DNA from: an uncultured Gammaproteobacteria bacterium
GTDB taxonomy: Bacteria > Patescibacteriota > Microgenomatia > UBA8517
Assembly: GCA_964430475.1 (NCBI GenBank)
Contig: CAYSEQ010000001.1
Coordinates: 13,659 to 77,658, forward strand
Direction of reading: 5' to 3'
Length of the DNA: 64,000 nucleotides
Shown here: in pieces, positions 9,439-59,035 of the stretch
How positions within the stretch are numbered: position 1 is the stretch's first letter
How the letters are laid out: each line of letters starts with the position of its first letter
Notes under the pieces: model-generated
What the model was told of the DNA's origin: nothing
Seen by the model: only the letters and a program-made list of their open reading frames with translations
Databases searched by the model: none
Position numbers and translations under genes: made by a program

Positions 9439-9470
9439 AGTGTGTTGATTGAATTATGGCTTTTTCTTTA

Positions 9471-14006: not shown

Positions 14007-14096
14007 TTTAAAAACTACTTTATTCCTCCTCTTTCCCCTGCACTTAATTGTATTTCGTAATATATAAAAGTTGTATTTTTGTGTAAAATCTAAGAT

Positions 14097-15181: not shown

Positions 15182-15227
15182 TTTTTGATTGCCTTAAGGA
15201 GGTAAATTTAGTAGAATAAAGATCATT

Positions 15228-15298
15228 GCGGGTATAGTTGAATGGCTCAACGCCACCCTTCCAAGGTGGAAATGCGGGTTCAATTCCCGCTACCCGCT
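15228..15298 (+). tRNA. tRNA-Gly (anticodon TCC)
   Basis: GCGGGTA...CCACC-CTTCCAA-GGTGG...GCGGG-TTCAATT-CCCGC-TACCCGC-T. Confidence 0.8.
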
Positions 15299-15333
15299 CC
15301 TTGTTTAATTAAAGAGGAAATAAGAAACCTAAT

Positions 15334-16467: not shown

Positions 16468-16654
16468 TCTCTATTTAGAAAAATGTTTTTTGATAACTTA
16501 AGAGTTTTTTATAAACCTACTCTATTAAATACAGTCTAGTCTTATATGTTTTTACGAGTCAATGAGCAAAATTTAGATATTCTAATCCTTAATATTTTTA
16601 ATAAGGTTTGTGTAAGATTTTGGAGTAAGTTAGTAGAGGCTAAATTCTACCTTT

Positions 16655-19732: not shown

Positions 19733-19829
19733 TTTTAATTTGCTTAAAAATCTCTGCCAATTTAAAATTACGGAATCCCGTAGTAATATTTTAATAGTTT
19801 TTTGTGTAGGTTTTTAGAAGAAAAAATCC

Positions 19830-20672: not shown

Positions 20673-20778
20673 AGTATGGGATTGGTATTAATTACATTTT
20701 GATCTAAATAACCTGACTTGTCAAATATTTCTACTGGATTAAAGTGGCGGAAAAATGTAAAATAAAAGATGTTTATAA

Positions 20779-20853
20779 GGTGGATGTAGCTCAACGGTTA
20801 GAGCACTTGCCTGTGGAGCAAGGGGTTGGCGGTTCGAATCCGCTCATCCACCC
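20779..20853 (+). tRNA. tRNA-His (anticodon GTG) with encoded G-1
   Basis: G-GTGGATG...CTTGC-CTGTGGA-GCAAG...CATCCAC-C. The extra 5' G pairs with C73, which is the His identity element. Confidence 0.8.
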
Positions 20854-21009
20854 AAAATTTATTGTTTGTTATATCTTTCAAAGATCAGTACAAATTAAGA
20901 GGTTTATCTTAAGTCATAACCTTTACAATCTCCGGCAACTTTCCTTGGTTTTTCTCCCTATTTTTATTGAAAGTGCTAGAATAATAAACTAAAAAGCAGT
21001 CTTACTTAA

Positions 21010-42799: not shown

Positions 42800-44161
42800 T
42801 TAGCTTCGAATTAAAGAGAGAAGTTCTCGGGTTTTTTCTTCAACAAGGTCTTGCGATTTAGCCTCAAGTGTGAGGCGTAGAAGCGGTTCGGTATTTGATG
42901 GTCTTACACAAAATCTCCAATCTTTATATTCAACAGCAATCCCATCAAGTCGTGATCTTTTAGTATCCTTATATTTTTCAAATATCATCTTAATCTTTCC
43001 CTCTTTATCCTCTACCTCGCTATTGATTTCGCCGGAAATGAAATATTTTTTCATTACAGGTTTTATCGCTTGGGATAATTTTTTATTAGTAGTTGATAAA
43101 AATTTAAGGATTTGCATAACAGGAATCATTCCACAATCCGAGTACCAAAAATGCTTGTAATAAGTATGACCGCTTGATTCTGCTGCGAAAACCGCATCAT
43201 ACTTTCGCATTGCTTCCTTTATATATGAATGTCCAACTCTGCTTAAAATAGGAGTTCCACCAAATCTTTTAATCGTATCAATTAGTGCCCAGGTATAGCG
43301 GATATCAAAAATTATCTTGCCTCTTGGATATTCTTTAAGAATTTCTTTTATAAGTATAGTATTTAAATAGTAGGGTTCAACGAAAATTCCTCCGTCAGTT
43401 GCAAAGAAAACTCTGTCTGCGTCCGCATCCCAAGCAATACCTAAATCCGCTTTAGTGTCTTTAACAAGTTTGATGAATTCTCCTCTATTTTCTGGAACGA
43501 ATGGATCAGGCCTTCCTTTTGGAAACCGTCCGTCAGGTTCGAAATTAAGAGGAATAATCTCAATGGGCAGATTGCCCTTTTTTATAATTTTTTCAAAAAT
43601 TTTTCCAGCAAGGCCAAAATTCGGATTAACCACAATTCGCATTGGTTTCATTTTAACTTCTTTGATATAACTTAAAATGAAATTGCAGTAATCTTCCCAA
43701 ATATCCACTCTCTCTACATTACCCCTTTCTTGTTTTGTTTTTTGCGGTTTTTTGTCATCCTTAAGAACGAAATCTCTAATTTGGCTAATTCCCGTCTCGA
43801 AGGTGATGGGTGAGGAGTTTTCCCTAACCATTTTAAAACCATGCCACTCGGGAGGGTTGTGGGAAGCCGTTGTTTGAATACCTCCTGCCTTTTTGTAATA
43901 TCCTACTCCAAAGTAAAGCATGTCTGTTGAGATTAAACCCACATCCCAAACTTTAACGCCAGTCTCTATAAGTCCTTTGATTAGGGCTTCTTTTAGTTTA
44001 TGAGAATGAATTCTAACATCCTCACCAACCAGAACTTCATTTTGAGGTTTAATCAAGTACGCGTAGGCTTTGCCTATTTTATAAGCAATTTCTTCGTTTA
44101 GTGTTACAGGATAAATTCCTCGGATATCGTAAGCTTTGAATATTGAGGGATCTATTTTCAT
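42800..44161 (-). CDS. Phosphoglucomutase/phosphomannomutase
   Basis: 453 aa with the active-site Ser loop TASHNPPEWHGFK. Confidence 0.85.
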   Translation of the reverse strand: MKIDPSIFKAYDIRGIYPVTLNEEIAYKIGKAYAYLIKPQNEVLVGEDVRIHSHKLKEALIKGLIETGVKVWDVGLISTDMLYFGVGYYKKAGGIQTTASHNPPEWHGFKMVRENSSPITFETGISQIRDFVLKDDKKPQKTKQERGNVERVDIWEDYCNFILSYIKEVKMKPMRIVVNPNFGLAGKIFEKIIKKGNLPIEIIPLNFEPDGRFPKGRPDPFVPENRGEFIKLVKDTKADLGIAWDADADRVFFATDGGIFVEPYYLNTILIKEILKEYPRGKIIFDIRYTWALIDTIKRFGGTPILSRVGHSYIKEAMRKYDAVFAAESSGHTYYKHFWYSDCGMIPVMQILKFLSTTNKKLSQAIKPVMKKYFISGEINSEVEDKEGKIKMIFEKYKDTKRSRLDGIAVEYKDWRFCVRPSNTEPLLRLTLEAKSQDLVEEKTRELLSLIRS

Positions 44162-44176
44162 AAAAAGTTTTTAGTA

Positions 44177-44857
44177 TCAGTCTTTTGATTCTAATTGCGT
44201 AACCACCAACAAATCAAGTTCGTTGTTTAACTCAGATTGAGAATTTTTTACTTTTATGTCTAGAAAGGAGAGTTTCAGAATAATTTCTTTAAGTTTTTCT
44301 TTAGAAAATTTGGAAGCTTGTTTTTTGAGTCTAGTTATTTTCCAACTTGGATAGTTTATAGTCTCAGCATCAGTTTTAATCCAAAATAAGTCTCTTATGT
44401 GTCTTGCAAAAAGAGCAAAAATCAATTCTAATGGCTCGTTTTTTACTGACTGGTGTAATAAGTTTAAGGCTTTGCGGGTATTACCAGGGAAAAAAGATTC
44501 AAGAAAAGACCAAACAATTTTGGGGAGATTATATATTTCTACAATTTTATCTTTTGGCAATTTGGTAAGAAATTTATCGTTTAAAATTCCTTGGTTGTAT
44601 ATGATAAGATTTATTTCAGGATTGCCTTTTTCTTTTTTTAGCCAGTTTAAGTCTTTTTGCGTAATAACTTTGATATCCTCAACAACTACAGCTTTCTTTT
44701 TTTGAAAAAGACTCTGATTTGCTAAAATTTCCCTTAAGTTTCCTTTTTGTTCAAATTTTATTACTTCCCAGTCTCTTTTTCTAAGACTATCTATTATTGT
44801 TTGTAGTCTTTCGTAAGATTTAATTAGGTCATCTCCGTGAATAACAAGTATTTTCAT
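44177..44857 (-). CDS. DNA polymerase III delta subunit-like (HolA-like)
   Basis: 226 aa. Weak resemblance to the HolA N-terminal fold and winged-helix C-terminus. Lies between pgm and ruvC. Confidence 0.4.
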   Translation of the reverse strand: MKILVIHGDDLIKSYERLQTIIDSLRKRDWEVIKFEQKGNLREILANQSLFQKKKAVVVEDIKVITQKDLNWLKKEKGNPEINLIIYNQGILNDKFLTKLPKDKIVEIYNLPKIVWSFLESFFPGNTRKALNLLHQSVKNEPLELIFALFARHIRDLFWIKTDAETINYPSWKITRLKKQASKFSKEKLKEIILKLSFLDIKVKNSQSELNNELDLLVVTQLESKD

Positions 44858-44870
44858 CTAAATTTTAATT

Positions 44871-45272
44871 TTATTTTCTTTTTAGGTATTTTATATACAT
44901 TTCCCTTATCTTGTCGTTAAATTTTCTCTTACCCCTTTTAATATGTGGTACAAGACTTCCTGAAAAGTTTTTAGGTATATGGAGTAGTTCATGGATGATA
45001 ACCTTATCTTTTTCGCTACTTTCTAGTTTATCAAAGTTTTCAGATAAAACCTCTATGATGTAATTAGGACTTTCTCTAAGGGCAATTTGCCATATTCTCG
45101 TTAATCCCCAGACCCTTGCGTAAGCCCGAGCTTTTGAACCGTAGGATCTATAGCAATGAATCTTTGAAGTATCTATCCAATCCATATCAAGCACTTTAGT
45201 CAAATGAAGTATTTTATTCTTAACATCTGGTGCTTTTTCCCACTTTATCCTTTTTCTTTTTTTTACTCTCAT
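44871..45272 (-). CDS. Small basic HExxH protein, putative Zn-metallopeptidase (SprT/DUF45-like)
   Basis: 133 aa with VIIHELLHIPKNFSGSLVPH. Confidence 0.35.
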   Translation of the reverse strand: MRVKKRKRIKWEKAPDVKNKILHLTKVLDMDWIDTSKIHCYRSYGSKARAYARVWGLTRIWQIALRESPNYIIEVLSENFDKLESSEKDKVIIHELLHIPKNFSGSLVPHIKRGKRKFNDKIREMYIKYLKRK

Positions 45273-45530
45273 TTACTCCACTATTTTAAAAACTTCGGTA
45301 CCCTCTTTAACCGGCTGGTCAACTTTTAATCCAATAATATCACCTTTCTTGGCGCTTTCTATTTTCTGGTGTTCAATCTGCATGGAGGCAACCGATTGTT
45401 CAAAAAGATCTTCTCCACCTCTTACGAACTTTATCCTGTCTCCGTTTCCCAAATCACCTTCAAGTTCTACTATTGCTACCCCAATCTTGTCGTAATAATG
45501 TGTAACCTTGCCAATTCTAAAATCTGCCAT
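45273..45530 (-). CDS. Small beta-barrel hypothetical protein
   Basis: 85 aa. Its stop abuts the downstream gene and its start overlaps ruvC's stop. Confidence 0.3.
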   Translation of the reverse strand: MADFRIGKVTHYYDKIGVAIVELEGDLGNGDRIKFVRGGEDLFEQSVASMQIEHQKIESAKKGDIIGLKVDQPVKEGTEVFKIVE

Positions 45531-46035
45531 TTATCTCACCTCCTTTGCTTTCTTTAAGAGCATATGTTATCGCGCAAGCTAAGGCATCTGCACAATCGTC
45601 AAAATGAGTTTTTTTATGAGCTCCACTTCTTATATGATTTCCTAAAAGTCTTCTTATTGATCTTTGTATTTCTTTCTTTTTGGCTCTCCCGTTTCCTGTA
45701 AGAGTTTTTTTGATTGTAGCAGGAGCGTACTCTATGACTTTAATCTTTGCTCTAGAAGCAGCAAGTAAAAGTACTCCTTGAGCTTGACCGACATCAATGG
45801 CAGTTTTGGCATTGGTTGCGAAAAATATTTTTTCCATTACGAAAACATCAGGGGAATAATCTTGGATTAGTCTTCCGGCACTTTTGTAAATTTTTTCGAG
45901 CCTTTTTTCTTTGAATCCGTTTTTGTCTGTTTGGATAAGACCCCAACTTACAACCGACATTTTTCCTTTTCCGTCAAGTTTTAAGATACCGTATCCTGTA
46001 GTTGCTGTACCTGGATCAATGCCAAGGATGAGCAT
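45517..46035 (-). CDS. ruvC: Holliday junction resolvase RuvC
   Basis: MLILGIDPGTATTGYGIL... Confidence 0.9.
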   Translation of the reverse strand: MLILGIDPGTATTGYGILKLDGKGKMSVVSWGLIQTDKNGFKEKRLEKIYKSAGRLIQDYSPDVFVMEKIFFATNAKTAIDVGQAQGVLLLAASRAKIKVIEYAPATIKKTLTGNGRAKKKEIQRSIRRLLGNHIRSGAHKKTHFDDCADALACAITYALKESKGGEINGRF

Positions 46036-46097
46036 TTTTTATTTAATTATACTCCATGTTGGTAGTTTCAAATAAAAACCCAAGTAATGAAGTCTAT

Positions 46098-46322
46098 TTA
46101 ATCTTTAGCTTTTCTTTTTACCATTTGGAAAAATTTTAAATAGATTATTTCAAGAATTCCAAGCGTGTTTAGCAAAAGGATTATCAGGAACCAAATTTTT
46201 TGATTATTTTCAACCGCCCTCCAAAGCGCCAATGCTTTCCAAAAAATTGACCATAATACTATAATTATTATTAATAGTGGAGGAGATTGAGCTGGCACGC
46301 CGAATAATAAATCTTGTAGCAT
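46098..46322 (-). CDS. Small two-TM membrane protein
   Basis: 74 aa, hydrophobic. Confidence 0.3.
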   Translation of the reverse strand: MLQDLLFGVPAQSPPLLIIIIVLWSIFWKALALWRAVENNQKIWFLIILLLNTLGILEIIYLKFFQMVKRKAKD

Positions 46323-46361
46323 AAGTTTTATCCAACTTCTAGTTTAAGGTAGTTTTTTATT

Positions 46362-47165
46362 CTAGACAATTGGTAGTTTGAGATTAAAAAGCTTGAAAGA
46401 GTTTTCTAAAACTATTTTTTTAAGTTCATTTTCTTTCAACTTTTTGATTTTACTAACATACTTTAGAATAAATAGAAGATTTTTAGGCTCGTTGAGGCTT
46501 TTAAATGATTTGTTTTTTTGTCTTGTGTCAAATTTTGGCGTGAGAAATGGTGAATCTGTTTCTAAGACAAGCATTTCTAGTGGAACTTTTTTGATAAACA
46601 AGGCTTTTTGGTCGTTATATGTTATATCTCCATCAACTCCAATATAGATCTTTCTTTTTTTAGCGTACTCTAAAATTTTTAAATTCGGTTCGCAACAGTG
46701 AAAGACGCATCTTTGCTCAAGCTTTTTGTCCCAACATTCGTCAATTGTTCTAATAATGTCTTTGGAAGCATTTCTATTGTGAATAATGAGACTTTTTCCA
46801 AAAAGGAGAGAAAGCTTTATTTGCATTTTGAAAAAAGTCATTTGAATTTTAGGATTAGCCCTAAACCAGTAGTAGTCAAGACCCGTTTCTCCCACCGCGA
46901 GGACTTTTTTTTCTTGTAAAAGTTTTTTGAGTCTTTCTTTTGCAGTTTTTATTTGAATTTTTTCTAAATCCTTAGTAGGATGAATACCCACAGAAGAAAA
47001 AACGCCCTTATATTTCTTGGCAATTTCAATTCCTTTTTTTGAGGTTTCAAAATCTGTGCCGACAATCATTAAATATTCAATTTCTGAAGATTTTGCTTTT
47101 TTTAGAGTTTCCTCTATCCTCCCCTTGAAAGCTTTGAAGTTTAGATGGCAATGAGTGTCAAACAT
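46362..47165 (-). CDS. tatD: TatD-family metal-dependent DNase
   Basis: MFDTHCHLNF...VGETGLDYY... Confidence 0.85.
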   Translation of the reverse strand: MFDTHCHLNFKAFKGRIEETLKKAKSSEIEYLMIVGTDFETSKKGIEIAKKYKGVFSSVGIHPTKDLEKIQIKTAKERLKKLLQEKKVLAVGETGLDYYWFRANPKIQMTFFKMQIKLSLLFGKSLIIHNRNASKDIIRTIDECWDKKLEQRCVFHCCEPNLKILEYAKKRKIYIGVDGDITYNDQKALFIKKVPLEMLVLETDSPFLTPKFDTRQKNKSFKSLNEPKNLLFILKYVSKIKKLKENELKKIVLENSFKLFNLKLPIV

Positions 47166-47184
47166 TACGCTTTCGTTTTAGATT

Positions 47185-47880
47185 TTAGAAGTTGACGAAA
47201 TATCTTATATTAGCTTCGCTTTTTAATTTGGAGATCCAATTTTGATATTCGTTTACGAGTTTTTCCTGGGTAAGCTGTCTTTTTAAATCTTCTTTGATGT
47301 CTTCATATTTAGAGTCTGGGTAGTATTGCTGGTTTTGCTCGTAATAGTTTTTAATCTCATCATCCGAAACTTGAATTTTGTCTTTTAGGAGTGTCTCTAA
47401 AGTTTTTTGAATTTTAATATTTTCCCTAAGAGTCTCAAGTGTTTGTTCCTGAGAGGCAAGTACTGCTTCTAGGCTAGAACCCTGATCTTGTATTTGTTTA
47501 CTTATTTTCTCTATTTCTTGATTTACCTGATCATCGCTGACTACAATTTTTTGTTTACTTGCTTCGCTTAAGATGAGTTCTTTGGTTATTAAACTATCCA
47601 AAGTTTGTTTTCCACCTTGCTTTTCAAGCTCCCTTATTAATGTTAAGCGACTGATGGGTTTGCCATTAACAGTTGCGGCAATAAATAGGCTTTTACTAAA
47701 GAAAAGAATTCCTAGTAAAACTATTAACAATAAGAAGATCCTCAAAAGTCTGGATTTTGGTGTAATTGAGTTTATTTTCTTAAAAAAATTAGATTTTAAA
47801 AAAATAGATTGAGGTTTTTTAACTTCCGAATATTGTCCTTTTTGTTTTACCCTCAAGTCATCTGCTTTTGTTTTTGCCAT
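47185..47880 (-). CDS. SurA N-terminal-domain-like chaperone, membrane-anchored
   Basis: 231 aa with an N-terminal TM. ...TVNGKPISRLTLIRELEKQGGKQTLDSLITKELILSEASKQKIVVSDDQVNQEIEKI... Confidence 0.45.
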   Translation of the reverse strand: MAKTKADDLRVKQKGQYSEVKKPQSIFLKSNFFKKINSITPKSRLLRIFLLLIVLLGILFFSKSLFIAATVNGKPISRLTLIRELEKQGGKQTLDSLITKELILSEASKQKIVVSDDQVNQEIEKISKQIQDQGSSLEAVLASQEQTLETLRENIKIQKTLETLLKDKIQVSDDEIKNYYEQNQQYYPDSKYEDIKEDLKRQLTQEKLVNEYQNWISKLKSEANIRYFVNF

Positions 47881-47937
47881 GTTAGTATCCTATACGGAAA
47901 AATTCTTAAAGTAAATAGGGAAAAAGAGGCAAAATGT

Positions 47938-48552
47938 TTAGGCTTCTGAGGTTGCCTGAGCGAACCTTTCGCCAACCTTATCCCAGTTTACTACATTCCA
48001 CCAGGCTTGAATATAATCTAGTTTGCGATTTTGGTATTTAAGATAATAAGCATGTTCCCAAAGATCTATTCCAAGAAGAGGGATATTGCCATGCATAACT
48101 GGAGAATTTTGAAACGAGTGTCTTTTCAGTCTTATTTCACCTTCTTTAGTCATAATTAAAAATGCCCAACCGCTTCCAAAAACACTCATTGCTTTGTTTG
48201 TAAACTCTTCTTTAAATTTTTCAATTCCCCCAAACTTTCCATTTAACATTTCCATTAATTTTCCGCTTGGTTGTGTGGATTTTGGAGTCATGATCTCCCA
48301 AAAGAAGCTATGGTTGACATGGCCTCCTGCATTGTTGATGACTTGTTGCCTTACGCCTTCAGGAATTTTGTCAAGGTTTTTTAAAAGTTCTTCGGGATTT
48401 TCCGGAGCCTCAAAGTTTATTGATTCTAGGACTTTATTTAGATTGTCAACATATGACTGATGATGTTTGGTATGGTGAATATTCATTGTCAACTCGTCAA
48501 TGTAAGGTTCAAGGGCGTTATAAGGATAGGGTAATTTGGGTAAACTATACAT
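47938..48552 (-). CDS. sodA: Fe/Mn superoxide dismutase
   Basis: LPYPYNALEPYIDELTMNIHHTKHHQSYV ... DLWEHAYYLKYQNRKLDY. Confidence 0.9.
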   Translation of the reverse strand: MYSLPKLPYPYNALEPYIDELTMNIHHTKHHQSYVDNLNKVLESINFEAPENPEELLKNLDKIPEGVRQQVINNAGGHVNHSFFWEIMTPKSTQPSGKLMEMLNGKFGGIEKFKEEFTNKAMSVFGSGWAFLIMTKEGEIRLKRHSFQNSPVMHGNIPLLGIDLWEHAYYLKYQNRKLDYIQAWWNVVNWDKVGERFAQATSEA

Positions 48553-48559
48553 AAATTCC

Positions 48560-48841
48560 TTAAAAGACTTTTTTCCTGATCAAAAGCCTGTAAAGAAAGT
48601 ATACAATAATAGAACTTACTACAAAATATAATAATTTAGTTGTCAAGGTAAAGTAAAGTACAATCGTTAAAACGATTGTTTCGCCAAAAGGAATATAGAT
48701 TCTTCTTGAACCTACTACCTTATAAAGATCCCCGGGAAAGACTATTTTAGAGTTACTAAAGTAAAAGATAATGTACGAGACCAAAAAAGAAATAACAATT
48801 AGATAAACCAAAAGCTTAATACTTGGCTCAAGCACTTGCAT
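48560..48841 (-). CDS. Small membrane protein
   Basis: 93 aa with 3 TM helices. Confidence 0.3.
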   Translation of the reverse strand: MQVLEPSIKLLVYLIVISFLVSYIIFYFSNSKIVFPGDLYKVVGSRRIYIPFGETIVLTIVLYFTLTTKLLYFVVSSIIVYFLYRLLIRKKVF

Positions 48842-48848
48842 AAGTTTT

Positions 48849-49256
48849 TTATGTTTTTAGCGGTATAAAATTAGTGACTATTTGCCTTTGTCTGGGCCCA
48901 TCAAGTTCAACAAGGATAACTTTCTGCCATTGCCCAAGGACAAGATTTGAGTTTTCAACAGGTAAGGTAATAGAGGTACCTATTATACTTGAAATAATGT
49001 GATCTGGAACATGCTCGGGATTATGGGGGTGGCGAAAGTTAAGTTTAGGGGTTAAACCTTCCAAAAAATCAAGGTAATCTTGATCAGTGCCTCCCGGATC
49101 AAGATCGGCAGTGGTTAAGGCACAGGTTGTATGTGTAGCAAAAATCTGACAAAGACCTTTCTCGTATTGACTTTTTGTAAGATAATCATCGAGGATTCCT
49201 GTGATATCAAGGACCTCTCTTTTTTTGTTTGTCGTTATAGTTAGAATAGCCATCAA
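48849..49256 (-). CDS. YjbQ/UPF0047-family protein
   Basis: 135 aa. ...TCALTTADLDPGG...HPHNPEHVPDHIISSIIGTSITLPV... Confidence 0.75.
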   Translation of the reverse strand: MMAILTITTNKKREVLDITGILDDYLTKSQYEKGLCQIFATHTTCALTTADLDPGGTDQDYLDFLEGLTPKLNFRHPHNPEHVPDHIISSIIGTSITLPVENSNLVLGQWQKVILVELDGPRQRQIVTNFIPLKT

Positions 49257-49458
49257 TTCTTAATATAACACAAAGCGTTTGTAAACCTCAAAATTTTTTA
49301 GAATTTTTATCTTTCTAAAAGTTTTTAGATTTGCTTAAAATTTATCAGTTGCAGGCAAATTGTTTGCAAAATTTTAATCAATGAATCCAATCAAATAACC
49401 AATTAAAATTTGCAGTTGCTTTACTTTTTAGTGCTATTGTATAGTAGAAATAGGTCAT

Positions 49459-50379
49459 ATGGAAAAGGATAAAGGCAATAAAAATTTTATCTTTCCCGAT
49501 GAAAGTACTGGCTATACTCAGGTAAAAACACAACAGGTTTTAGAAAAAAAGACAACTGAAGAAAAAAAAGCCCCTTCTGAAAATACCTCCTTTTCCCAAG
49601 CTCAAGAGTCCCAGGTTGCTTCCGCTCCACCACCTCCTTCCTCTCCTCCTTTGGCTTCTCCGACAATAGTCTCAGCACAAAGGAAAGGCCCTAGTTGGTT
49701 TAAAATTTTTGTGATTTTTGCATTAATTATTATCGCGATAATTTATTCAGCTGTTTTTTACCTTTATCTCCAAAATCGCAATCTTAGAAGCCAAACCTTA
49801 CAAACTGAACCAACATCAAACCTTCCATCAGCAACTCCTACTCCCTCCTTCAGTCCAAGTTGGATAAGAATTCAAAACGGCAATGTTGTAAGACACGAGC
49901 CTGGCAAAGAACCCATAATACTTGTGAATAAAAATGACTATCCCTCAACAGGCATTGTCGGCTTTGCAAGAGTAATTGTTTCTCCTGACAACAATCTTTT
50001 ATGTTTTGAAGCCCTTTCTCCCGCAGTTGAGCCTGCGATATATGTTTCCAATGTAGACGGAAGTAATGTAAGGATGATAAGCACCAATAAACAAAATTGT
50101 GTCTTTAGAAGCGACAGCAAGTCAATCTTCTACATAAATACCGCTCCTAAAAGCTCGCCTGTAAGCATCTTTCAATATGATTTAACCCAGGAGAACGCGG
50201 TTGAGATTGATCTGACAAAAAGCTCTGTTCCTGAGGGAGTTGTGAGAAGGTACGAGATTGTAGGATTCTCAGCTGATGATACAAAAATTATTTGTAAGTA
50301 CGAAGAAATTACTCAAGAAGAGGAGAAAACAGGTGAATGTGAAATAAACCTCGTGAGCGGTGAAGTTAATGTTTTTTAA
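49459..50379 (+). CDS. Single-pass membrane protein with a Pro/Ser-rich linker and a beta-rich extracytoplasmic domain (possible fibre anchor)
   Basis: 306 aa. APPPPSSPPLASP, then a TM helix, then PSATPTPSFSPS, then a ~200-aa beta-rich domain. Confidence 0.35.
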   Translation: MEKDKGNKNFIFPDESTGYTQVKTQQVLEKKTTEEKKAPSENTSFSQAQESQVASAPPPPSSPPLASPTIVSAQRKGPSWFKIFVIFALIIIAIIYSAVFYLYLQNRNLRSQTLQTEPTSNLPSATPTPSFSPSWIRIQNGNVVRHEPGKEPIILVNKNDYPSTGIVGFARVIVSPDNNLLCFEALSPAVEPAIYVSNVDGSNVRMISTNKQNCVFRSDSKSIFYINTAPKSSPVSIFQYDLTQENAVEIDLTKSSVPEGVVRRYEIVGFSADDTKIICKYEEITQEEEKTGECEINLVSGEVNVF

Positions 50380-50524
50380 TTTAGCTATCTTAAAAATTTC
50401 TATTATCAGGTATATTTTTATACAGAAATATATAGTTGACTTAAAAATCTCTTAATGTTATCGTAAAAAAAAGTCCCTAATTATTTACAACTTCCTGCCC
50501 CAAATCTCCTGCCCTATAAGGTAA

Positions 50525-51989
50525 ATGAATAAAAGTTTTCTCTTGAGCATATTGACAGTTGGTTTGGTAAGCATCGTCGCTTTTCGGCTTACATCCTCGT
50601 TTTTTTCGATATTGAAACCTCGCGTGACAATAGCCTCACAGCAGGCGAGCTAGATTTAAAAATAGACAATGTAAGTTATTTAAACGGTTCACTAAACTCC
50701 GGAACAACTTGGCCAACACCCATTGATTTGAAAAATAAACTCTTTTTTGATTTCAAAGATTTAAAACCTAGCGATTACGGCGAAGACACTATCTCTCTTC
50801 GCGCAGGAAACGATTATTGGCTGTGCATGGACATGGAAATATCTAAAGACGATGATGAAACCTGCACTGAACCCGAAACTCAAGATGATCCAAATTGTAG
50901 CGAACCTAACAATAATAATTTTGACGGTGAATTAGGAAGTTTAGTCAATTTTGTCTGGTGGCCGGATGACGGAGACAATGTTTTGGAAGATGATGAAACT
51001 CCATTTATTGATGTAAGTTCCGCTTCTGCCTCTCTTAATCAATCTGTCGCACTTGCTGATACAACTCACAACCTTTGGGGAACGCCCGGAACTCCTCTTT
51101 CGCCAACGAAAACTTACTATATCGGCAGGCTTGGTGTTTTGGAACCCTAACCCTTTCTCCTCTTTCCCAAGATGGAGTTGGCAATCAAAGAAGTCCGGCA
51201 GGAGATAATAACCAAAATGGGAAAAACGGCGAACCTCAAGATGGCGGATTTTTATGCGATGGCGCGTATATTGATAACGCAAGTCAAACTGATGTTTTGT
51301 TGGGGAATATTGAATTTAGAGCGGTTCAAGCAAGAAACAACAAAAACTTTACTTGTGAAGAGACAGACTTATCTCCAACACCCACGCCTTCTCCGACTTT
51401 AGCCTGCGCTCAGGCGGATGTCATGCTTGTTTTGGATAGAAGCGGAAGCATTAACCCAACTGAACTTAGTCAGCTCAAAACCGCCGCCAAAGCCTTTATT
51501 GACGCGCTTGGTCTATCAACATTTGGCATCCATGCAGGCTTCTCAAGTTTTGCAACTAATGGAACTCTCAACCAGCATTTGACAGATGATAGTTTAACGG
51601 TTAAAAGCGCAATTGATGCACTCGTCTCAGGCGGTTTCACCAACCTAAAAGAAGGGCTTGATCTTGCCAGAAATGAACACGCCAACCCCGGGGATGGACA
51701 TGATAGGGACGATTCAACTTCTCCCGACAAGGTTATTGTAATTACCGATGGTCATCCGAATAGACCCTTGCCATCCGACACTGCCGATGATGCTGCTGCT
51801 TCCTCCGCTGATGCTTATTGGGCGGATGGTGCGGAAATCTTTGTGGTAGGAGTGGGAAGTGATGTTAACACAACATACCTTAAAAACGAAATTGCAGATC
51901 CAGACGATCCCGGAGAACAACATTACTACTCTATCACAGATTACTCAGGTCTTGAAAATTTGCTTAAGAATCTTGATTTATGTCAATAA
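50525..51989 (+). pseudogene. TasA/camelysin (SipW-cognate signal) family protein fused to a C-terminal vWA domain, interrupted by two frameshifts
   Basis: Signal peptide MNKSFLLSILTVGLVSIVAFRLTSSFF in one frame up to a T7 tract (~50600-50606). The next frame reads FDIETSRDNSLTAGELDLKIDN...FFDFKDLKPSDYGEDTISLRAGNDYWLC, which is the AFFSD...G.LDL...LKPGD class motif. A second shift at ~51127-51135 leads into WCFGTL...GFLCDGAYIDNASQTD...VMLVLDRSGSIN... (vWA MIDAS DxSxS). Confidence 0.6.
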
Positions 51990-52049
51990 AAATTTTTTTT
52001 AGGCTTGATATTTAAAATTTAATATCTTTTTTAAAAAATTAGAAAGGAG

Positions 52050-52922
52050 GTGAGAAAAATGCGAAGGATACTTTTAAGCCTTTTATCAATCGGCGCGGTA
52101 TTGGCTGTTTCTGTTTTTGCCTCGCAGGCATTTTTTAGCGACACCGAAACCTCAACCGGAAATATCCTGCAAGCTGGCGCAATAGATTTAAAGATTGATA
52201 ATACAAGCTATATAACCGGACCTGATGGGAAATTAGTGAAAAGTGAAAGTACGACTTGGGAACTCGCTGATTTGTCAGGGCATCTTTTTTTCGATTTTAG
52301 TGATCTTAAGCCAGGAGATCTGGGCGAGGACACCATCTCAATTCATGTAAACAATAACCCCGCCTGGCTTTGCGCAGCAGCAAGGATAACCGAGGATTCG
52401 GATGTTGATTATACCGAGCCGGAGCTTGAGAGCGATACAACTGTAAATCCAACACCAACACCTCCAGGACTCGGAGAGTTGGATGACAATATTGAGATTG
52501 CCTTCTGGGCGGATGATGGAGACAATGTTTATGAGCAAGGAGAACAAATATTTCTTCAGGGTTTAATTAGCCAATTAGGACAAAGCGGTAAAATTGCCCT
52601 TGTTGATTCAACCACAAACATTTGGGAACAAACTCCTTCTCCCTTCCCAGGAGGCCAAACTCGCTACATCGGCAAGGCTTGGTGTTTTGGGGATTTAGTG
52701 CCATCAGCAGTTCCTCAGAGCAATGGAGGTCCATTAGAAGGGGATCCACCTCGAGGTACTGGATTTACCTGTGATGGGGCAAGTAGTATCAATAACGCCG
52801 CCCAAACAGATATGGTTAAAGGCGATATCCAGTTTTACGCTGTTCAGTCAAGAAACAACGCCAGCTTTACTTGTAGTAGTTGGACTCCTGTTTGGCCAAC
52901 ACCAACACTAACACAAGAATAA
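52050..52922 (+). CDS. TasA/camelysin-family (peptidase M73-like) secreted protein with a SipW-cognate signal peptide
   Basis: MRKMRRILLSLLSIGAVLAVSVFASQAFFSDTETSTGNILQAGAIDLKID...FFDFSDLKPGDLGEDTISIHVNNNPAWLC... The C-terminal half is paralogous to 50525..51989 (GFTCDGASSINNAAQTD...AVQSRNNASFTC). Confidence 0.65.
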   Translation: MRKMRRILLSLLSIGAVLAVSVFASQAFFSDTETSTGNILQAGAIDLKIDNTSYITGPDGKLVKSESTTWELADLSGHLFFDFSDLKPGDLGEDTISIHVNNNPAWLCAAARITEDSDVDYTEPELESDTTVNPTPTPPGLGELDDNIEIAFWADDGDNVYEQGEQIFLQGLISQLGQSGKIALVDSTTNIWEQTPSPFPGGQTRYIGKAWCFGDLVPSAVPQSNGGPLEGDPPRGTGFTCDGASSINNAAQTDMVKGDIQFYAVQSRNNASFTCSSWTPVWPTPTLTQE

Positions 52923-53061
52923 AGTAGGCTTTAAGCGCGTAAAACAAGGATAAAATTGTTAATAGGGGTACAAGGTTATAACCTTGTACCCAAAGCCAAC
53001 TGGCTAGAAGAAATAAAAAGTCTTTTAGCCGGTTGGCTTTGAAAGTTTAAAAAAATTAAAG

Positions 53062-54015
53062 ATGGACAAGAAAAATTTATTTCTTAATCTTTTTATTGCA
53101 ATCCTCTACGCTTTGATTTTTTCGCTTTCCGCGGTTTCCTCTTTTTTGGCCTTGGACATTTTAAAACCCAATTTGGATTTGGAGGTGCAATCGCCTGATT
53201 TAGGTTTTTTAAATTCGCTTAAGTCAAAGATTCCGAAATTTTATATAGTCCAATCCGGCTCAATGGAGCCTGCTATTAAAACCGGAAGCATTGTTGTTGT
53301 TATTCCTTCCCAAAACTACGCTCAAGGAGACATTATCAGCTTTAAAAAAGGCAAAAATATTATCACTCACAGGATTTACGCAAAAACATTTAACCAAGAC
53401 GAAAATCTTGAACCTCTGTATTTGACCGCAGGAGACGCCAACGAAGAGTTTGATGCCTGGAAGGTAAAAAATGAAGAGATTGTCGGTAAGGTTATTGTTT
53501 CTATCCCTTATCTTGGCTACATCGCAAATTTTGGAAAAACGCCTCAGGGCTTTATTCTTCTGGTTATCGTTCCCGCAACGATAATCGTTTACGAAGAAAT
53601 AAAAGCGATAATCAGCCAAATAAGGTGCCTTTTAAGTAAGTTCTTCTTAAACCCAAATTTTACTCCAAGACTTTCTTCGGAAAATTTCGGATTGCCCTTT
53701 TACACAATCTTGATTCCATTTTTTGGCGCGTTTGCTATAGTTGGCGTTTTGACAACATCTTATTTTTTGGATATTGAATCAAGCATTGGCAATATCTTAG
53801 GCGCAAGAGAGGTTTTCAATTCCACAAATAATCTTGATATCCAAAGTCAATCAATCAACATTAATGAGAATTTTCAACCCTCTCCATCAGTCTCAATTTC
53901 TTCCGACGAACAAAACCCTCCCAACCCAACCCCGAGTGAGCTTTCAGATTTAACCCCCACTCCCACAAGTGGTCCGCAAGAAACCCAAGAGAACATAAAT
54001 GAGTCCGGGATTTAA
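53062..54015 (+). CDS. sipW: SipW-type (S26B, ER/archaeal type) signal peptidase I with an extended C-terminal region
   Basis: IVQSGSMEPAIKTGSIVVV...GDIISF...ITHRIY...LTAGDANEEFDAWKVKNEEIVGKVIVSIPYLGYI. A C-terminal TM is followed by a ~90-aa tail. Confidence 0.75.
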   Translation: MDKKNLFLNLFIAILYALIFSLSAVSSFLALDILKPNLDLEVQSPDLGFLNSLKSKIPKFYIVQSGSMEPAIKTGSIVVVIPSQNYAQGDIISFKKGKNIITHRIYAKTFNQDENLEPLYLTAGDANEEFDAWKVKNEEIVGKVIVSIPYLGYIANFGKTPQGFILLVIVPATIIVYEEIKAIISQIRCLLSKFFLNPNFTPRLSSENFGLPFYTILIPFFGAFAIVGVLTTSYFLDIESSIGNILGAREVFNSTNNLDIQSQSININENFQPSPSVSISSDEQNPPNPTPSELSDLTPTPTSGPQETQENINESGI

Positions 54016-54021
54016 GAAGTT

Positions 54022-55092
54022 TTGCAATTTTGTGTTATGTTTTTAAAAAAATTTTACTTTTTTAAAAAAAATAGACGCCATGTTTTTATTTCTGTTTGTG
54101 TTTTTGCAATCCTTTCTTTAATTTTTATCAAAAAAAATGCCAATAATGAAATCTATGCAGTTGATCCATTGGTAGTTAGTTATAACGGACAGTCGCCACC
54201 CAGCCCAATTTTTGAAATTTCAAATTTTCTTCCAGGGGACGAAATTGAAAAGAATTTTGAAATAAAAAATTTAAGCCCGCAAACGCAAAGCGTTTTTTTA
54301 AAAGCTGTAAAAATTGAAGAAAGTCAAAATTTCTCTAACATTCTTGAGGTGGTTGTGGGATTAAAAAACGGAGCTTATATTTTTGGAGGTTCGCTAGGGG
54401 TAAAAACTTTAAACAATTTATTTTCAAGCGAGAAAATAGACTTAGGACAACTTTCGCCAAACGAGCAAAAGACATTTAGAATAAAAGTTAGTTTTCCGGC
54501 TCATGCGGGTAACGAATATCAAAACGCCAAGGTTATATTTGATTTAATCTTTGCCAATGAAATTTTTGAGATTAAGCTTCCTCCGGAGTGCGAGGAACTT
54601 CAAGGGTTAGTGACAAAAGTTGTTGAAGGAACTTTAGGCAACGACATTATTCACGCAAGTTCCGCCAACGAACTTATATTGGCTTTTGAGGGCAACGATA
54701 AAATTTACGGAAATTCAGGTCACGATTGCATTGTCGCTCACGACGGAAACGACCATGTTTTCGGCGGTTCAGGCAACGACATAGTGATCGCAGGCAATGG
54801 CAACGACAAGATAGAGGCGGATTCAGGAGATGATAAAATTTTGGCTGGCGATGGAAATGATGACATATTGGGAGGTTCAGGAAATGACAAGATTTATTTA
54901 GGATTTGGAAATGATGTTTTAAGAGGAGAAAGTGGTAATGATTTTCTTTACGGACAAGCTAGAAATGATAGTTTATTTGGCGAATCAGGGAACGATTTTC
55001 TCAACGGAGGTGAAGATATAGATAATTTGCATGGGGGTTCAGGCATTGACACTTGTCAAGAAGGTGAAACAAATCATTCTTGCGAGATTTGA
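54022..55092 (+). CDS. Secreted protein with a TasA-like N-terminal domain and C-terminal RTX-type calcium-binding nonapeptide repeats
   Basis: ...SNFLPGDEIEKNFEIKNLSPQTQSV... (compare TasA SNLKPGD...F.F.N.GSL), then GNDIIHAS...GNDKIYGNSGHD...GNDHVFGGSGNDIVIAGNGNDKIEADSGDDKILAGDGNDDILGGSGNDKIYLGFGNDVLRGESGNDFLYG... Confidence 0.55.
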   Translation: MQFCVMFLKKFYFFKKNRRHVFISVCVFAILSLIFIKKNANNEIYAVDPLVVSYNGQSPPSPIFEISNFLPGDEIEKNFEIKNLSPQTQSVFLKAVKIEESQNFSNILEVVVGLKNGAYIFGGSLGVKTLNNLFSSEKIDLGQLSPNEQKTFRIKVSFPAHAGNEYQNAKVIFDLIFANEIFEIKLPPECEELQGLVTKVVEGTLGNDIIHASSANELILAFEGNDKIYGNSGHDCIVAHDGNDHVFGGSGNDIVIAGNGNDKIEADSGDDKILAGDGNDDILGGSGNDKIYLGFGNDVLRGESGNDFLYGQARNDSLFGESGNDFLNGGEDIDNLHGGSGIDTCQEGETNHSCEI

Positions 55093-55095
55093 TTT

Positions 55096-55491
55096 TTAAA
55101 TTTTAGGAGTGTTTTGGAGAGGAACCTGGGTACTTTCTTTTAAATTCACCTTGATAGGTCTTAAAAATTGTACGCCCAGTGAGGATATCTTAAATCCTGC
55201 ATTTAACAAAAAACCCATAAGCACGAGGTGGGCAAGAAAGTTCAATGGTTGATTTATCAATTCTTTTTCAACTAGTTCGGTTTTAAGAGAAGAGTTTGAA
55301 GGTTTTTCGGAGTTTGATATTGGAACCTCGCCAGAGACAAATTTTCCAAGGTCAAGTGATATTCCGGGTAAGTTAAAAAGCGGATAAGGTTTAATCTTTC
55401 CCGTAAACGCAAAGTAAACTTCAAGGATGGAAAAAACCATGAGTAGAATTCCAGCCACCAAAATGAGATATCCTATCACTTTTTCAGTCAT
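55096..55491 (-). CDS. Hypothetical membrane protein
   Basis: 131 aa with 2-3 TM helices. Confidence 0.3.
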   Translation of the reverse strand: MTEKVIGYLILVAGILLMVFSILEVYFAFTGKIKPYPLFNLPGISLDLGKFVSGEVPISNSEKPSNSSLKTELVEKELINQPLNFLAHLVLMGFLLNAGFKISSLGVQFLRPIKVNLKESTQVPLQNTPKI

Positions 55492-55562
55492 TGATTTTAT
55501 ATTACAATAAAATATCCCTAAAAATAAAGTTGCAAATGGAAAATTTTTAATATAGGATAATC

Positions 55563-55931
55563 TTGAATATGGCTAAAAAAATACTTTTAATTGAAGACGA
55601 TTTAGACATTCAAAAAATATATAGTTCAAAACTTAGTAGTTCTGGATACGAGGTAATTTTAGCCGCTACAGCCAAACAAGGCCTTCACTTCGCAAAACAG
55701 GAGCATCCGGATTTAATATTTTTAGACATTATGCTTCCGGGAGAAATGAACGGGTTTGAACTTCTGGAGGTATTAAAGAAAGACCAAGAAACTTCTAATA
55801 TTCCGGTCATCGTGATTACCAACCTTGACACAGAAAAGCAAAGCGCTCTCAATATTGGTGCACAAGACTATCTTGTTAAGGCAAACATTGATTTAAACGA
55901 GATTATTGAGAAGGTTAAAAAATATATTTAA
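55563..55931 (+). CDS. Stand-alone response-regulator receiver domain (CheY-like)
   Basis: KILLIEDDLDIQK...DLIFLDIMLPGEMNGFELLEVLK...PVIVITNLD... Confidence 0.8.
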   Translation: MNMAKKILLIEDDLDIQKIYSSKLSSSGYEVILAATAKQGLHFAKQEHPDLIFLDIMLPGEMNGFELLEVLKKDQETSNIPVIVITNLDTEKQSALNIGAQDYLVKANIDLNEIIEKVKKYI

Positions 55932-55954
55932 ACTCCCAAGCCAACTTTTCTGTC

Positions 55955-56209
55955 TTATTTTCTGTAAGATCTATAACTTTCTGCTTCTAGAGGGAATTCC
56001 AGCCTTAATTTCTCTATTACTTTTTCTCTTATTCGGCTGGATTCTATCACATTGTCTTTGGCTTCTACCCTTGCCCAGTCTTCAATCTCTTTGCTTATTC
56101 TTTCGGCATCCGAAGGAGGAACCCCGGATTTTTCAATAGAAACAACAAGCTTGTCTAGAATCCATCTTTCGTAAGAACCATCTTTCTTTTTAACTTGAAG
56201 ATCTTTCAC
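55955..56209 (-). CDS. ATP-cone-like small protein
   Basis: VKKKDGSYERWILDKLVVSIEKSG...AERISKEIEDWARVEAKDNVIESSRIREKVIEKL matches the V.KRDG..E.F...KI..AI pattern of ATP-cone domains. Confidence 0.45.
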   Translation of the reverse strand: MKDLQVKKKDGSYERWILDKLVVSIEKSGVPPSDAERISKEIEDWARVEAKDNVIESSRIREKVIEKLRLEFPLEAESYRSYRK

Positions 56210-56220
56210 TTTTTAGGTTC

Positions 56221-56811
56221 TTAGCCTCCTCTTTTATAAGTGCCCACAAGCTGGGCGCTATCAATGATTTTTTCTTTGATTTCCTTTTCAAGTTCCTTTT
56301 TTGTTGCGCCTTCTTTAAGGTCTAAAACGGAATCAAGCGCGTAAATTTTGAAAAAATAGCGATGTGTCCCAGAGGGTGGACATGGTCCTCCATAAGTGAC
56401 TTTACCAAAATCGTTGATTCCTTGGTTAGCACCCCTTGGTACTTCCCCTTCTTTTATTCTTTGAGTTTTTGGATCAATGTTAAAAACAACCCAGTGAGTG
56501 AAAGTTCCCATCGGGGCATCAGGATCATCAACTATCAAAGCCAAACTTTTGGCATTTTCAGGTACATCTGAGATAACTAGCTCTGGGTTTATGTTTTGCC
56601 CGTCGCAAGTAAATTTAGGTGGAATCGGAGCGTTGTTTTCAAAGTTTGGGCTAGTAATTTTCATTCTACCTTCTTCGGCTTTTTGGGTAGAATCTAAGTT
56701 GATAACAACCTTATCTTCTTGAAAACTCGGTATTTTAATGATACCAAAAAATGCAAGTAAGAATAAAGATATAGTAAAGAAAATAGCAATTAAAGAGATG
56801 ATCTTTTTCAC
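56221..56811 (-). CDS. YbhB/YbcL-family PEBP (Raf-kinase-inhibitor-like) protein, membrane-anchored
   Basis: ...LALIVDDPDAPMGTFTHWVVFNIDP...YGGPCPPSGTHRYFFKIYALD... Confidence 0.8.
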   Translation of the reverse strand: MKKIISLIAIFFTISLFLLAFFGIIKIPSFQEDKVVINLDSTQKAEEGRMKITSPNFENNAPIPPKFTCDGQNINPELVISDVPENAKSLALIVDDPDAPMGTFTHWVVFNIDPKTQRIKEGEVPRGANQGINDFGKVTYGGPCPPSGTHRYFFKIYALDSVLDLKEGATKKELEKEIKEKIIDSAQLVGTYKRGG

Positions 56812-57198
56812 TATTTTTTAAGAATCATTTTCTTGCTTAAGAATTTGGACAGTTCCTTGCGTAATGGTAGGTTTTACTGATATTTCTGGAGGATACTTCT
56901 GATGTTGAGTTTTATGCCAAGTTGCATCACATTTAAATAAGTCAGATAAGTTTTTGTAGAATATCAAATTTACCTCATCCCCTTTAAGGTTAGAGCTACT
57001 TTCTAAGATTTCTTCTATGGTTCTGATGAATTACTCGACCCTTTCTACAACTTCGTTGCAAACATTAAAATACTCTTTTGACATTACCTTTATGATCTTA
57101 TTCTACTTAAGCTTCTAAAATAGTATTAAAAGTTTAAGACTATTATAACACTTTCCAATAATAATATAATAGATAATTCAAAACACTTAAAAGGTATT

Positions 57199-57978
57199 AT
57201 GAAAAAGCTTTTTATTTCGGTGTTAGCTATTTTTGGTTTTTCACTGATTGTTTTTTTATTGTTTCCTAAAAAGGTTGGTAATGAAGACAAAAGAAAAGTT
57301 TCTAAAGAAAGTGTTTTATCAAAAAAAGAGAGTATTTCTCCAACTAATTTTCAAGTTTTTTTTGAAGACGAATATAGAATTTTGAAAATTAAAATTTCGG
57401 ACTTGAGGAGACTTTCTTTACACTCAAATCTTGGGCAAAAGCTTTTCTCTCAGGAGGCGCTTAAAGAAAAAGGTTGTGAGAAATTGATAAGCGCGGGTTT
57501 TTATTCAAATAATGGCTTTATAGGACTTTTTGCATCAAATGGTACGATAATTAGCAAAGCAGTAAAAAATAAAACATTTAACGGATATTTTTATATCCAC
57601 GAAGATTCAGCCTATATCTCTAAAGAATCTCCATCTTTATTCCTTCACGCCCTTCAAGCAGGACCGATTGTTTTTTCAAATGGAAAAGCAACAGAACTAT
57701 CAATGAAAAACGACGAAAATGCCAGAAGAATTCTTGTCGCAACAACCAAAAATCCGAAAGAAATCTTTTTTCTTGCAATCCACAATAAAGAAAATTTTCT
57801 TTCTGGACCAAAACTTTCGGAACTTCCGAAAGTTTTAGAAAAGATTAATCAAGAAGAAAACCTTGGTATAGTTGATGCCCTTAATTTAGACGGCGGAACG
57901 CATTCTGCTTTTTTGTTAGGCGAGGAAAACTTATTTGAAGTAGCAACAATCGGAGGTTTTTTCTGTATCAAATCTTAG
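57199..57978 (+). CDS. Phosphodiester glycosidase family (DUF2233/NAGPA-like) protein, secreted
   Basis: ...ISAGFYSNNGFIGLF...LQAGPIVFSNGKA...LNLDGGTHSAFLL... Confidence 0.5.
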   Translation: MKKLFISVLAIFGFSLIVFLLFPKKVGNEDKRKVSKESVLSKKESISPTNFQVFFEDEYRILKIKISDLRRLSLHSNLGQKLFSQEALKEKGCEKLISAGFYSNNGFIGLFASNGTIISKAVKNKTFNGYFYIHEDSAYISKESPSLFLHALQAGPIVFSNGKATELSMKNDENARRILVATTKNPKEIFFLAIHNKENFLSGPKLSELPKVLEKINQEENLGIVDALNLDGGTHSAFLLGEENLFEVATIGGFFCIKS

Positions 57979-58225
57979 AAGAGCCCTTTTTGTAAGGATT
58001 AAATATTTTTGTCTTTGGGTAAAATTTTTTAAGATTCTGGATTTTTTTCAGAAATTGCTCTTTTGAAATTCTATACACTGTATAGAATAGATTTCTTCTT
58101 ATATGAGAAAAAACCTGAGTTTGTCTTAGAACCTTGAATGATCTTGGAGTCTGACGGAAGTAAACATTTCTTCTTTAGTACTTTCTTTTCATTTTAAATT
58201 AAAAGAAATGTAATACTTAATTTTT

Positions 58226-58591
58226 TTATACAGTTATTATCTTTGCTGATTTTATTTTGTTTTTCTCAAGTTCTATTGCGACGACTTCAATTCTTAGTTT
58301 TTTGAAATTGCTAGGATTTTTAATTAAATAATACTCCGCAACCTTTCTTATTGTTTGGAGCTTTCTTTCGTTAACCGCCTCTTCAGGTTTCCCAAATTTT
58401 TCGTTAAAGCGTGTTTTAACCTCAACAAAAACAAGTGCATCTTTATCTTGGGCAATAATGTCTATCTCTCCAAATTTAGTCCTGAAATTCTTGTCAAGAA
58501 TTTTATAGTTAAATTTTTCAAGTAGGCTAACCGCTATTTTTTCACCAATATTTCCTGATTCTCGCGTATTAACTTGCTTTAGGCGAGACAT
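58226..58591 (-). CDS. YraN-family (UPF0102) endonuclease
   Basis: ...GEKIAVSLLEKFNYKILDKNFRTKFGEIDIIAQDKDALVFVEVKTR... Confidence 0.75.
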   Translation of the reverse strand: MSRLKQVNTRESGNIGEKIAVSLLEKFNYKILDKNFRTKFGEIDIIAQDKDALVFVEVKTRFNEKFGKPEEAVNERKLQTIRKVAEYYLIKNPSNFKKLRIEVVAIELEKNKIKSAKIITV

Positions 58592-58997
58592 TGCGCTTTT
58601 CTCTTTTCTTCCTAGATTTTATGGAGATTTTACTTTTCAAAACTTGGGTAATTTTAGATTTTTTGAGGACTTTTTTGTATATTTCTTGGAGTTCTTTTTT
58701 AGGCTTATTTCTTAAATAATAAAGTTTTGCTCTTCTTACACCCTGTGTTCCACTTTTTATCACATCTATTCTTTCTAAAGTTGGTGATGACAAGGGAAAA
58801 ATCCTTTCAATGCCGATTTGTCCTGCTCCTATTCTTCTTACGGTTATGTTTTTGTTTTCGTTTGCTCCCTTAATAGCTATAACAACTCCCTCAAATACTT
58901 GGGATTTTTCTTTTTCTCCCTCTTTGATTTTTTGAATAACCTTAATTTTATCGCCAACTCCAAATTTAATGTCTTTATGTTGAACAAAAAGCGCCAT
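58569..58997 (-). CDS. rplS: 50S ribosomal protein L19
   Basis: ...FGVGDKIKVIQKIKEGEKEKSQVFEGVVIAIKG...ITVRRI...GIERIFPLSSPTLERIDV. Confidence 0.9.
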   Translation of the reverse strand: MALFVQHKDIKFGVGDKIKVIQKIKEGEKEKSQVFEGVVIAIKGANENKNITVRRIGAGQIGIERIFPLSSPTLERIDVIKSGTQGVRRAKLYYLRNKPKKELQEIYKKVLKKSKITQVLKSKISIKSRKKREKRNVSPKAS

Positions 58998-59035
58998 GCT
59001 AGAATTTTACTCTAAAAAATTTTCCCTAACAAGTC

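Follow-up and report, generated by a model that had tools for sequence, protein, structure and literature searches.

A probable recent pseudogene of a Patescibacteria-wide secreted-protein family, frameshifted at two sites

Introduction

The closest described counterparts of the locus analyzed here are the TasA fibre operons tapA-sipW-tasA of Bacillus and sipW-tasA-calY of B. cereus. As in those operons, the locus encodes an archaeal-type signal peptidase beside several secreted β-sandwich proteins with a junction of the A-F-x-D type. Homologues of TasA (PF12389) have been reported in Patescibacteria (PMC9245690). Our literature search returned nothing specific on TasA in the Candidate Phyla Radiation, no paper on a fusion of such a protein to a VWA domain, and no paper on phase variation in Patescibacteria.

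One gene of the locus is interrupted next to a run of seven T, an arrangement that recalls three further kinds of system. Phase variation through homopolymer tracts is known from the contingency loci of Neisseria, Haemophilus, Campylobacter and Mycoplasma; like them, our gene is one for a surface protein and has, close to its 5′ end, a run of a single nucleotide in which one added base alters the frame. Rescue by transcriptional slippage at poly(A/T) tracts is known from the endosymbionts Buchnera and Blochmannia and from Thermus dnaX, in runs of about nine or more and with a single event needed; the likeness to the endosymbiont cases lies in a frameshift beside a U-run in an AT-rich, reduced genome. 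With the pseudogenes of reduced or host-dependent genomes, finally, the gene shares a pattern in which isolated indels of one base, several to a gene, hit dispensable accessory genes, housekeeping neighbours are intact, and orthologues have been broken independently in other lineages.

The initial annotation of this DNA had proposed the first of these readings, i.e., a T7/T8 phase-variation switch, with a caveat concerning a second frame change. Here we describe the gene, its relatives and its surroundings in the window, by which we mean the whole 64-kb stretch of DNA analyzed (36% GC).

Results

A gene in three reading frames

The interrupted gene occupies positions 50525–51989 of the forward strand and is spread over three frames (A, B and C), each of which is a −1 step from the preceding one. 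The two junctions, at 50607/50608 and at 51127–51128, each correspond to one missing base. Its parts, all on the forward strand, are as follows.

50525–50607, forward: frame A, encoding the SipW-type signal peptide MNKSFLLSILTVGLVSIVAFRLTSSFF and, at its end, the TC with which the Ser28 codon begins (from translation)
50600–50606, forward: T7 run, read TTT TTT T(CN) in the Phe-Phe-Ser codons; intact orthologues have the same run
50607–50608, forward: lesion 1, third base of the Ser28 codon missing (TC- GAT), frame A to frame B (placement inferred from homologues)
50608–51126, forward: frame B, D29 to G201, TasA-like β-sandwich domain with no internal stop (from translation and tblastn)
51127–51128, forward: lesion 2, where "AG" is left of the invariant Lys202 codon and the frame changes from B to C (from an insertion scan)
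51129–51989, forward: frame C, A203 to Q488, comprising the rest of the TasA-like domain, a Pro/Thr linker, the VWA domain and the stop codon (from translation)
51417–51968, forward: VWA domain with a DRSGS MIDAS motif (Pfam PF00092)

Frame A, opened by the ATG at 50525, reads MNKSFLLSILTVGLVSIVAFRLTSSFFS and comprises 42 codons before its stop. In frame B, (F)DIETSRDNSLTAGELDLKIDN leads on to TYYIGRLGVLEP at the end, with the stop at 51148–51150, while frame C passes through AWCFGTLTL, crosses the VWA domain and stops at 51989. The assembled sequence has T7 followed by CGAT at site 1 and GGCAGGCT at site 2.

When intact orthologues were used as tblastn queries, the gene was covered by three HSPs in collinear order, one each in frames 2, 1 and 3, with junctions at 50602–50608 and 51126–51129. 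Residues 2–27 of orthologue P0005, for example, aligned to 50531–50608 in frame 2, and residues 26–199 of orthologue P0001 to 50602–51129 with 72% identity. Both positions at which the initial annotation had placed a change of frame were thereby confirmed, including the second one, which it had described as lying outside any homopolymer and which can now be pinned to the "AG" at 51127–51128.

The repaired product and its family

Restoration of one base per site yields a product of 488 aa with no further stop. Its architecture is that of a SipW-type signal peptide followed by a TasA-like β-sandwich and by a C-terminal VWA adhesion domain. Among the matches listed, the repaired protein is collinear with at least 120 intact orthologues (about 450–500 aa, 95–100% coverage), the best of which, P0001, shows 67% identity. 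The named sources of these orthologues are Woesebacteria, Daviesbacteria, Levybacteria and other Patescibacteria, the family being present in Microgenomates, and more than 100 of them are encoded in a single frame.

The VWA domain was matched by PF00092 over residues 299–482 with 80.2 bits (cut-off 23.8; E 2.8e-22). Within its DRSGS motif, at residues 305–309, D305, S307, G308 and S309 are invariant and R306 is found in at least 90% of the orthologues. The N-terminal region of about 280 aa remained below the Pfam cut-off, with no match of the repaired gene to PF12389 (camelysin/TasA) at E ≤ 0.01; some orthologues do have a precomputed PF12389 match. The FFSD.E.S junction motif of the SipW-type signal peptide is present, and a TasA-type jelly-roll/β-sandwich fold is predicted by structural modelling of the paralogue (see below). 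The evidence thus supports the description "TasA-like, SipW-dependent" at the level of superfamily and operon rather than of strict family membership. This is also the sense in which the signal peptide and the TasA-like mature domain proposed in the initial annotation have held up.

Besides the two missing bases, the gene is extremely well conserved. Only two deviations in invariant columns are unique to it, both conservative (L250I and D262N), the corresponding number for intact orthologues being 0–9. Given so few changes, the inactivation would be recent.

Site 1 and the T7 run

The junction motif F-F-S-D-x-E-x-S is near-invariant among the orthologues. In the window, positions 50597–50611 read TCG TTT TTT TCG ATA, meaning that frame A already encodes S-F-F-S (TCG TTT TTT TCG) and that frame B carries on with D-I-E-T-S. 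The consensus is regained only if one base is added after C50607, at the third position of the Ser codon. Aligned to the intact orthologue from genome L006 (ACA AGC TCG TTT TTT TCT GAC ACT GAA), the window shows ACA TCC TCG TTT TTT TC- GAT ATT GAA.

An in-frame T7 is found at the FFS motif of the intact genes in L006, L007, L013 and L019, and a T8 in L010; altogether, the run reaches at least seven in 15 of 201 motif instances (T7 in 13, T8 in 2). To judge from these alignments, T7 is the native in-frame length of the Phe-Phe-Ser codons (TTT TTT TCN) and not a contracted T8, and the base lost at site 1 would best be placed in the third position of Ser28, 3′ of the run. The alternative, that an ancestral T8 lost one T, is formally conceivable, but would need an ancestor unlike every relative.

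We also considered what the addition of one T would achieve. The initial annotation had located the interruption at the T7 run, exactly at the junction of signal peptide and mature protein, and expected an extra T to fuse the two frames with restoration of the AFFSD consensus. The interruption does adjoin the run, but is not demonstrably inside it; an eighth T does join frames A and B, but the product reads SSFFFD rather than FFSD. The residue at the Ser position was tabulated over 299 homologous motifs (183 instances of the motif from related loci, 116 from orthologous proteins): it was S in 265, N in 18, G in 6, T in 4, A in 2, Q in 2, I in 1 and H in 1, and never F.

The tract itself is not exceptional. 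A/T runs of at least seven occur 90 times in the window and 58 of them lie inside intact ORFs; all of these 58, spread over 41.5 kb of coding sequence, are in frame. Lesion 1 is at most 2 nt from such a run, which is true of only 1.6% of window positions. This proximity is attributable to the T-rich codons of the FFS motif and not to any peculiarity of the tract.

Site 2

At the second site, the window reads GGC AG GCT TGG TGT, with the Lys202 codon one base short. All 17 aligned sequences share G201, K202, W204 and C205, and at least 90% of them have A203. The surrounding sequence (C GGC AGG CTT) contains no mononucleotide run, no repeat and no slippery heptamer of the X XXY YYZ type. When the 93 nt downstream of each site were compared with shuffled sequences, no stimulatory RNA structure was apparent at either site (z = −0.24 and +1.73). 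Programmed −1 frameshifting was rejected on these grounds, i.e., for lack of a slippery heptamer at site 2 and of downstream structure at both.

Because lesion 2 falls outside any repeat and within an invariant codon, no change in a single tract can yield the full-length protein. If only site 1 is mended, the product stops at about residue 208, before three conserved cysteines of the β-sandwich and before the entire VWA domain.

Reproducibility of the sequence

Contigs of the Logan assembly of SRR11582147 matched the window at 100% over 43459–52723, 52725–60015, 1–10838 and 13413–22467. The two assemblies are therefore completely identical over the 36.5 kb compared, though Logan and NCBI may share the same reads. 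The Logan contig runs unbroken through both lesion sites and does not branch at the T7 run. The same gene fragments are found on an NCBI contig of 166,662 bp, possibly again from the same reads. The identity of the two assemblies excludes an artefact of the assembler, but not an error at the level of the reads.

Exact-protein look-ups matched only the Logan sample SRR11582147 and the one NCBI contig (166,662 bp). In the literature, nothing on SRR11582147 turned up. In the collection of genome contigs, a single-protein scan found no genome of the same species or nearly identical, and a profile scan returned 344 loci, none from a close relative. In the collection of metagenome contigs, the closest relatives were at most 62% identical, with no genome of the same species.

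The Logan contigs of SRR11582147 end and begin around base 52724 (52723–52725), within the intact TasA-like paralogue described below. This break may be a branch point in the read graph, due to a strain variant or to a paralogue repeat.

The surrounding cassette

The interrupted gene is embedded in a cassette that includes the following genes, all on the forward strand.

49459–50379, forward: membrane protein of 306 aa, upstream (synteny by tblastn in L002, L004, L006, L013, L023 and L027)
52050–52922, forward: intact paralogue of 290 aa with a TasA-like domain only, motif SQAFFSD (from translation and alignment)
53062–54015, forward: SipW-type (archaeal-type) signal peptidase I of 317 aa (TIGR02228)
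54022–55092, forward: secreted RTX-repeat protein (PF00353, E 2.5e-29)

The paralogue is 42% identical to the repaired gene and collinear with it across both lesions. With PF12389 it scored 18.7 bits (cut-off 22.5), over the signal-peptide region only. The AlphaFold model of the paralogue had a pLDDT of 83.9, and the only significant PDB match that Foldseek retrieved with it was the TasA fibre 8AUR (E 1e-4), at modest TM-scores of 0.36/0.44. This match is a further likeness to the TasA fibres of Bacillus and B. cereus, from which the proteins of the window differ in scoring under the PF12389 cut-off. TasA, moreover, has no VWA domain, whereas the interrupted gene has one at its C-terminus.

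The signal peptidase scored 91.3 bits with TIGR02228 (cut-off 51.85; E 5.5e-26), while its 97.3 bits with the SipW model NF046067 were under the cut-off of 190. Unlike the Bacillus and B. cereus SipW proteins, it is extended by a substrate-type motif: it is 317 aa long, against about 190 expected, and a transmembrane segment at the C-terminus precedes TTSYFLDIESS at 53752. Among 63 complete SipW-like ORFs from related loci, 15 had such a motif after the peptidase domain, and these ORFs reach about 610 aa. The arrangement suggests peptidase–substrate fusions that may process themselves.

The cassette (50525–55092 in the window; L002–L083) is conserved among Patescibacteria and comprises the upstream membrane protein, TasA-like/VWA fusion, one to three TasA-like paralogues, SipW, RTX protein. 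In the GTDB representative genomes, 344 loci of the cassette family were confirmed by tblastn. Of 83 related loci, 69 have a SipW homologue no more than 4 kb away, and by tblastn the RTX gene is located downstream of SipW in L002, L010, L011, L027 and others. No TapA homologue was identified.

The TasA-like domain of the cassette has six conserved cysteines, and the MIDAS motif is intact. To go by these residues, the proteins may form a disulfide-stabilized fibre or a tip adhesin.

Other broken genes and broken orthologues

A home-made hexamer scan of coding potential was noisy where scores were weak; consequently, it was used only to flag candidate broken genes, which were then checked by translation, Pfam and homologues. 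At least four further accessory genes of the window turned out to be frameshifted. The fragments and genes concerned are the following.

1320–1730, forward: nucleoside 2-deoxyribosyltransferase/DNPH1-like gene (Nuc_deoxyrib_tr), with one-base deletions at about 1478 and about 1640, in a non-repeat context
1712–2902, forward: merA-like mercuric reductase, ending in KLSCCI, with four or more changes of frame, one of them an extra G at about 1865
2944–3132, forward: MerT-like fragment
3286–3694, forward: HMA/MerP-like gene with one shift
14097–15181, forward: Wzy_C O-antigen-ligase-like gene, with a one-base deletion at 14564–14567 beside a T6 run

In the merA-like gene, the pieces matched by Pfam Pyr_redox_2 and Pyr_redox_dim are in different frames. 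The repaired Wzy_C product, of 361 aa, matches intact proteins of 355–390 aa from Microgenomates with 94–100% coverage. The decayed genes at the start of the window form a cluster at 1247–3694 (forward strand), all of which is reproduced in the Logan contig L086.

Long housekeeping ORFs, in contrast, are intact, among them the one for DnaE (1173 aa) and two others, of 1025 and 1005 aa. Ten indels fall in at most five of 62 genes, a distribution with P = 0.0007 under a model of uniform error.

In 2 of about 21 representative genomes, too, the VWA fusion is broken, independently and by lesions unrelated to those of the window. In L009 (Daviesbacteria) we found a frameshift and a short duplication of DLTEGD at about 3786–4001, and the NCBI annotation retains only P0054, an N-terminally truncated protein of 409 aa; in L021, an internal deletion of about 72 codons with a change of frame is located at about 3955–4001. 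Fragmented orthologues were the outcome that the initial annotation had named as favouring a simple pseudogene.

Discussion

We consider it likely that the gene at 50525–51989 is a recently inactivated pseudogene of a secreted-protein family found throughout Patescibacteria. With respect to its intact orthologues, the gene shows frame-breaking lesions that are reproducible and unaccompanied by recoding signals, which is the pattern of a frameshift pseudogene. Two independent one-base deletions would have broken it, one removing the third base of the Ser28 codon just 3′ of T7 and the other removing one base of the invariant Lys202 codon, and translation from the ATG would end after 42 codons. 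The loss was probably tolerated, as the TasA-like paralogue of the same SipW cassette is intact and the RTX-repeat partner is retained. From the pseudogenes of reduced or host-dependent genomes the gene differs in nothing material, except that it would be at a very early stage of decay.

That the deletions are true mutations rather than read errors is something we infer, and the opposite view deserves some attention. If the organism's gene were intact and the consensus had dropped one base at each site, one would expect the rest of the gene to be perfectly conserved, as it is. The clearly placed lesions here and in the DNPH1-like and Wzy-like genes are, moreover, all one-base deletions, and the NCBI and Logan records come from a single sample. 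However, the two assemblies agree without exception over 36.5 kb. Systematic miscalling of homopolymers could be ruled out from the 58 long in-frame runs in intact ORFs, which are free of errors. Lesion 2 and both lesions of the DNPH1-like gene lie outside homopolymers, and the indels are concentrated in a few accessory genes while sparing ORFs of 1173, 1025 and 1005 aa (the P value given above). A sequencing or assembly artefact therefore seems unlikely to us. Programmed recoding is another way to keep the gene functional: slippage of the transcriptase on U7, or −1 ribosomal frameshifting, would mend one or both sites and provide some full-length protein. Both shifts are indeed in the −1 direction, a U7 could allow slippage of RNA polymerase at a low level, and the downstream sequence still appears to be constrained. 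Yet site 2 offers neither a slippery heptamer nor a repeat, site 1 reads G UUU UUU and does not conform to X XXY YYZ in the zero frame, downstream structure is absent, and the orthologues, more than 100 of them, make do with one frame. Slippage would also place an F where the Ser belongs. In comparison with the rescues known from Buchnera, Blochmannia and Thermus dnaX, the run is short (seven), its slippage product departs from the consensus, and the second shift has no run at all. We regard recoding as having scarcely any likelihood. Near-perfect conservation, which is also expected of a sequencing error or of a recoded gene, is the main residual argument for either.

As for phase variation, slipped-strand mispairing between T7 and T8 would toggle a subunit of a surface fibre or adhesin. 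The idea has some appeal, given that one base added in the run joins the signal peptide to the mature domain, that a predicted secreted surface protein is the usual type of target, and that lesion 1 adjoins the run, which could hence act as a nearby suppressor site. But T7 is the length that intact orthologues have in frame, the T8 "ON" allele would read FFFD, with an F seen in none of the 299 motifs, and lesion 2 keeps the gene off whatever the length of the tract. In this genome T7 runs abound and are stable, the Logan contig does not branch at the site, and the orthologues broken in other genomes owe it to unrelated lesions. In contingency loci a single tract suffices for ON/OFF switching, exceeds the background in length, and gives a consensus ON allele; here, by contrast, the tract is native, set by Phe-Phe-Ser codons and no longer than dozens of others, its ON allele departs from the consensus, and there is a second lesion outside any repeat. 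The switch put forward in the initial annotation thus fails on the native T7, on the T8 allele and on the second deletion, and decay of the same kind is seen in other accessory genes of the genome. The caveat which that annotation attached to the second shift, as a sign of decay, proved right. We give phase variation a very slight chance, and together with recoding it would still be quite improbable. There is an equally slim prospect that T7 serves as a high-rate suppressor site, with T8/U8 slippage re-joining the signal peptide and the mature domain as SFFFD. If that were true, and if the deletion at 51127–51128 were unfixed or an error, a TasA-like/VWA surface subunit would be reversibly switched, and the Candidate Phyla Radiation would then have its first described contingency locus.

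The TasA-like/VWA family is already represented in public databases, though uncharacterized, and on the reading we favour, inactivation by two deletions, the gene is an ordinary pseudogene of it. As such it matters little: the reduced genome has several other frameshift pseudogenes, and this gene adds one to their number. For scans of this kind the lesson is that a homopolymer beside a frameshift is no proof of phase variation when conserved codons make the run and a second, non-repeat lesion is present. More interesting than the broken gene is the cassette around it, a widespread and uncharacterized surface system of Patescibacteria.
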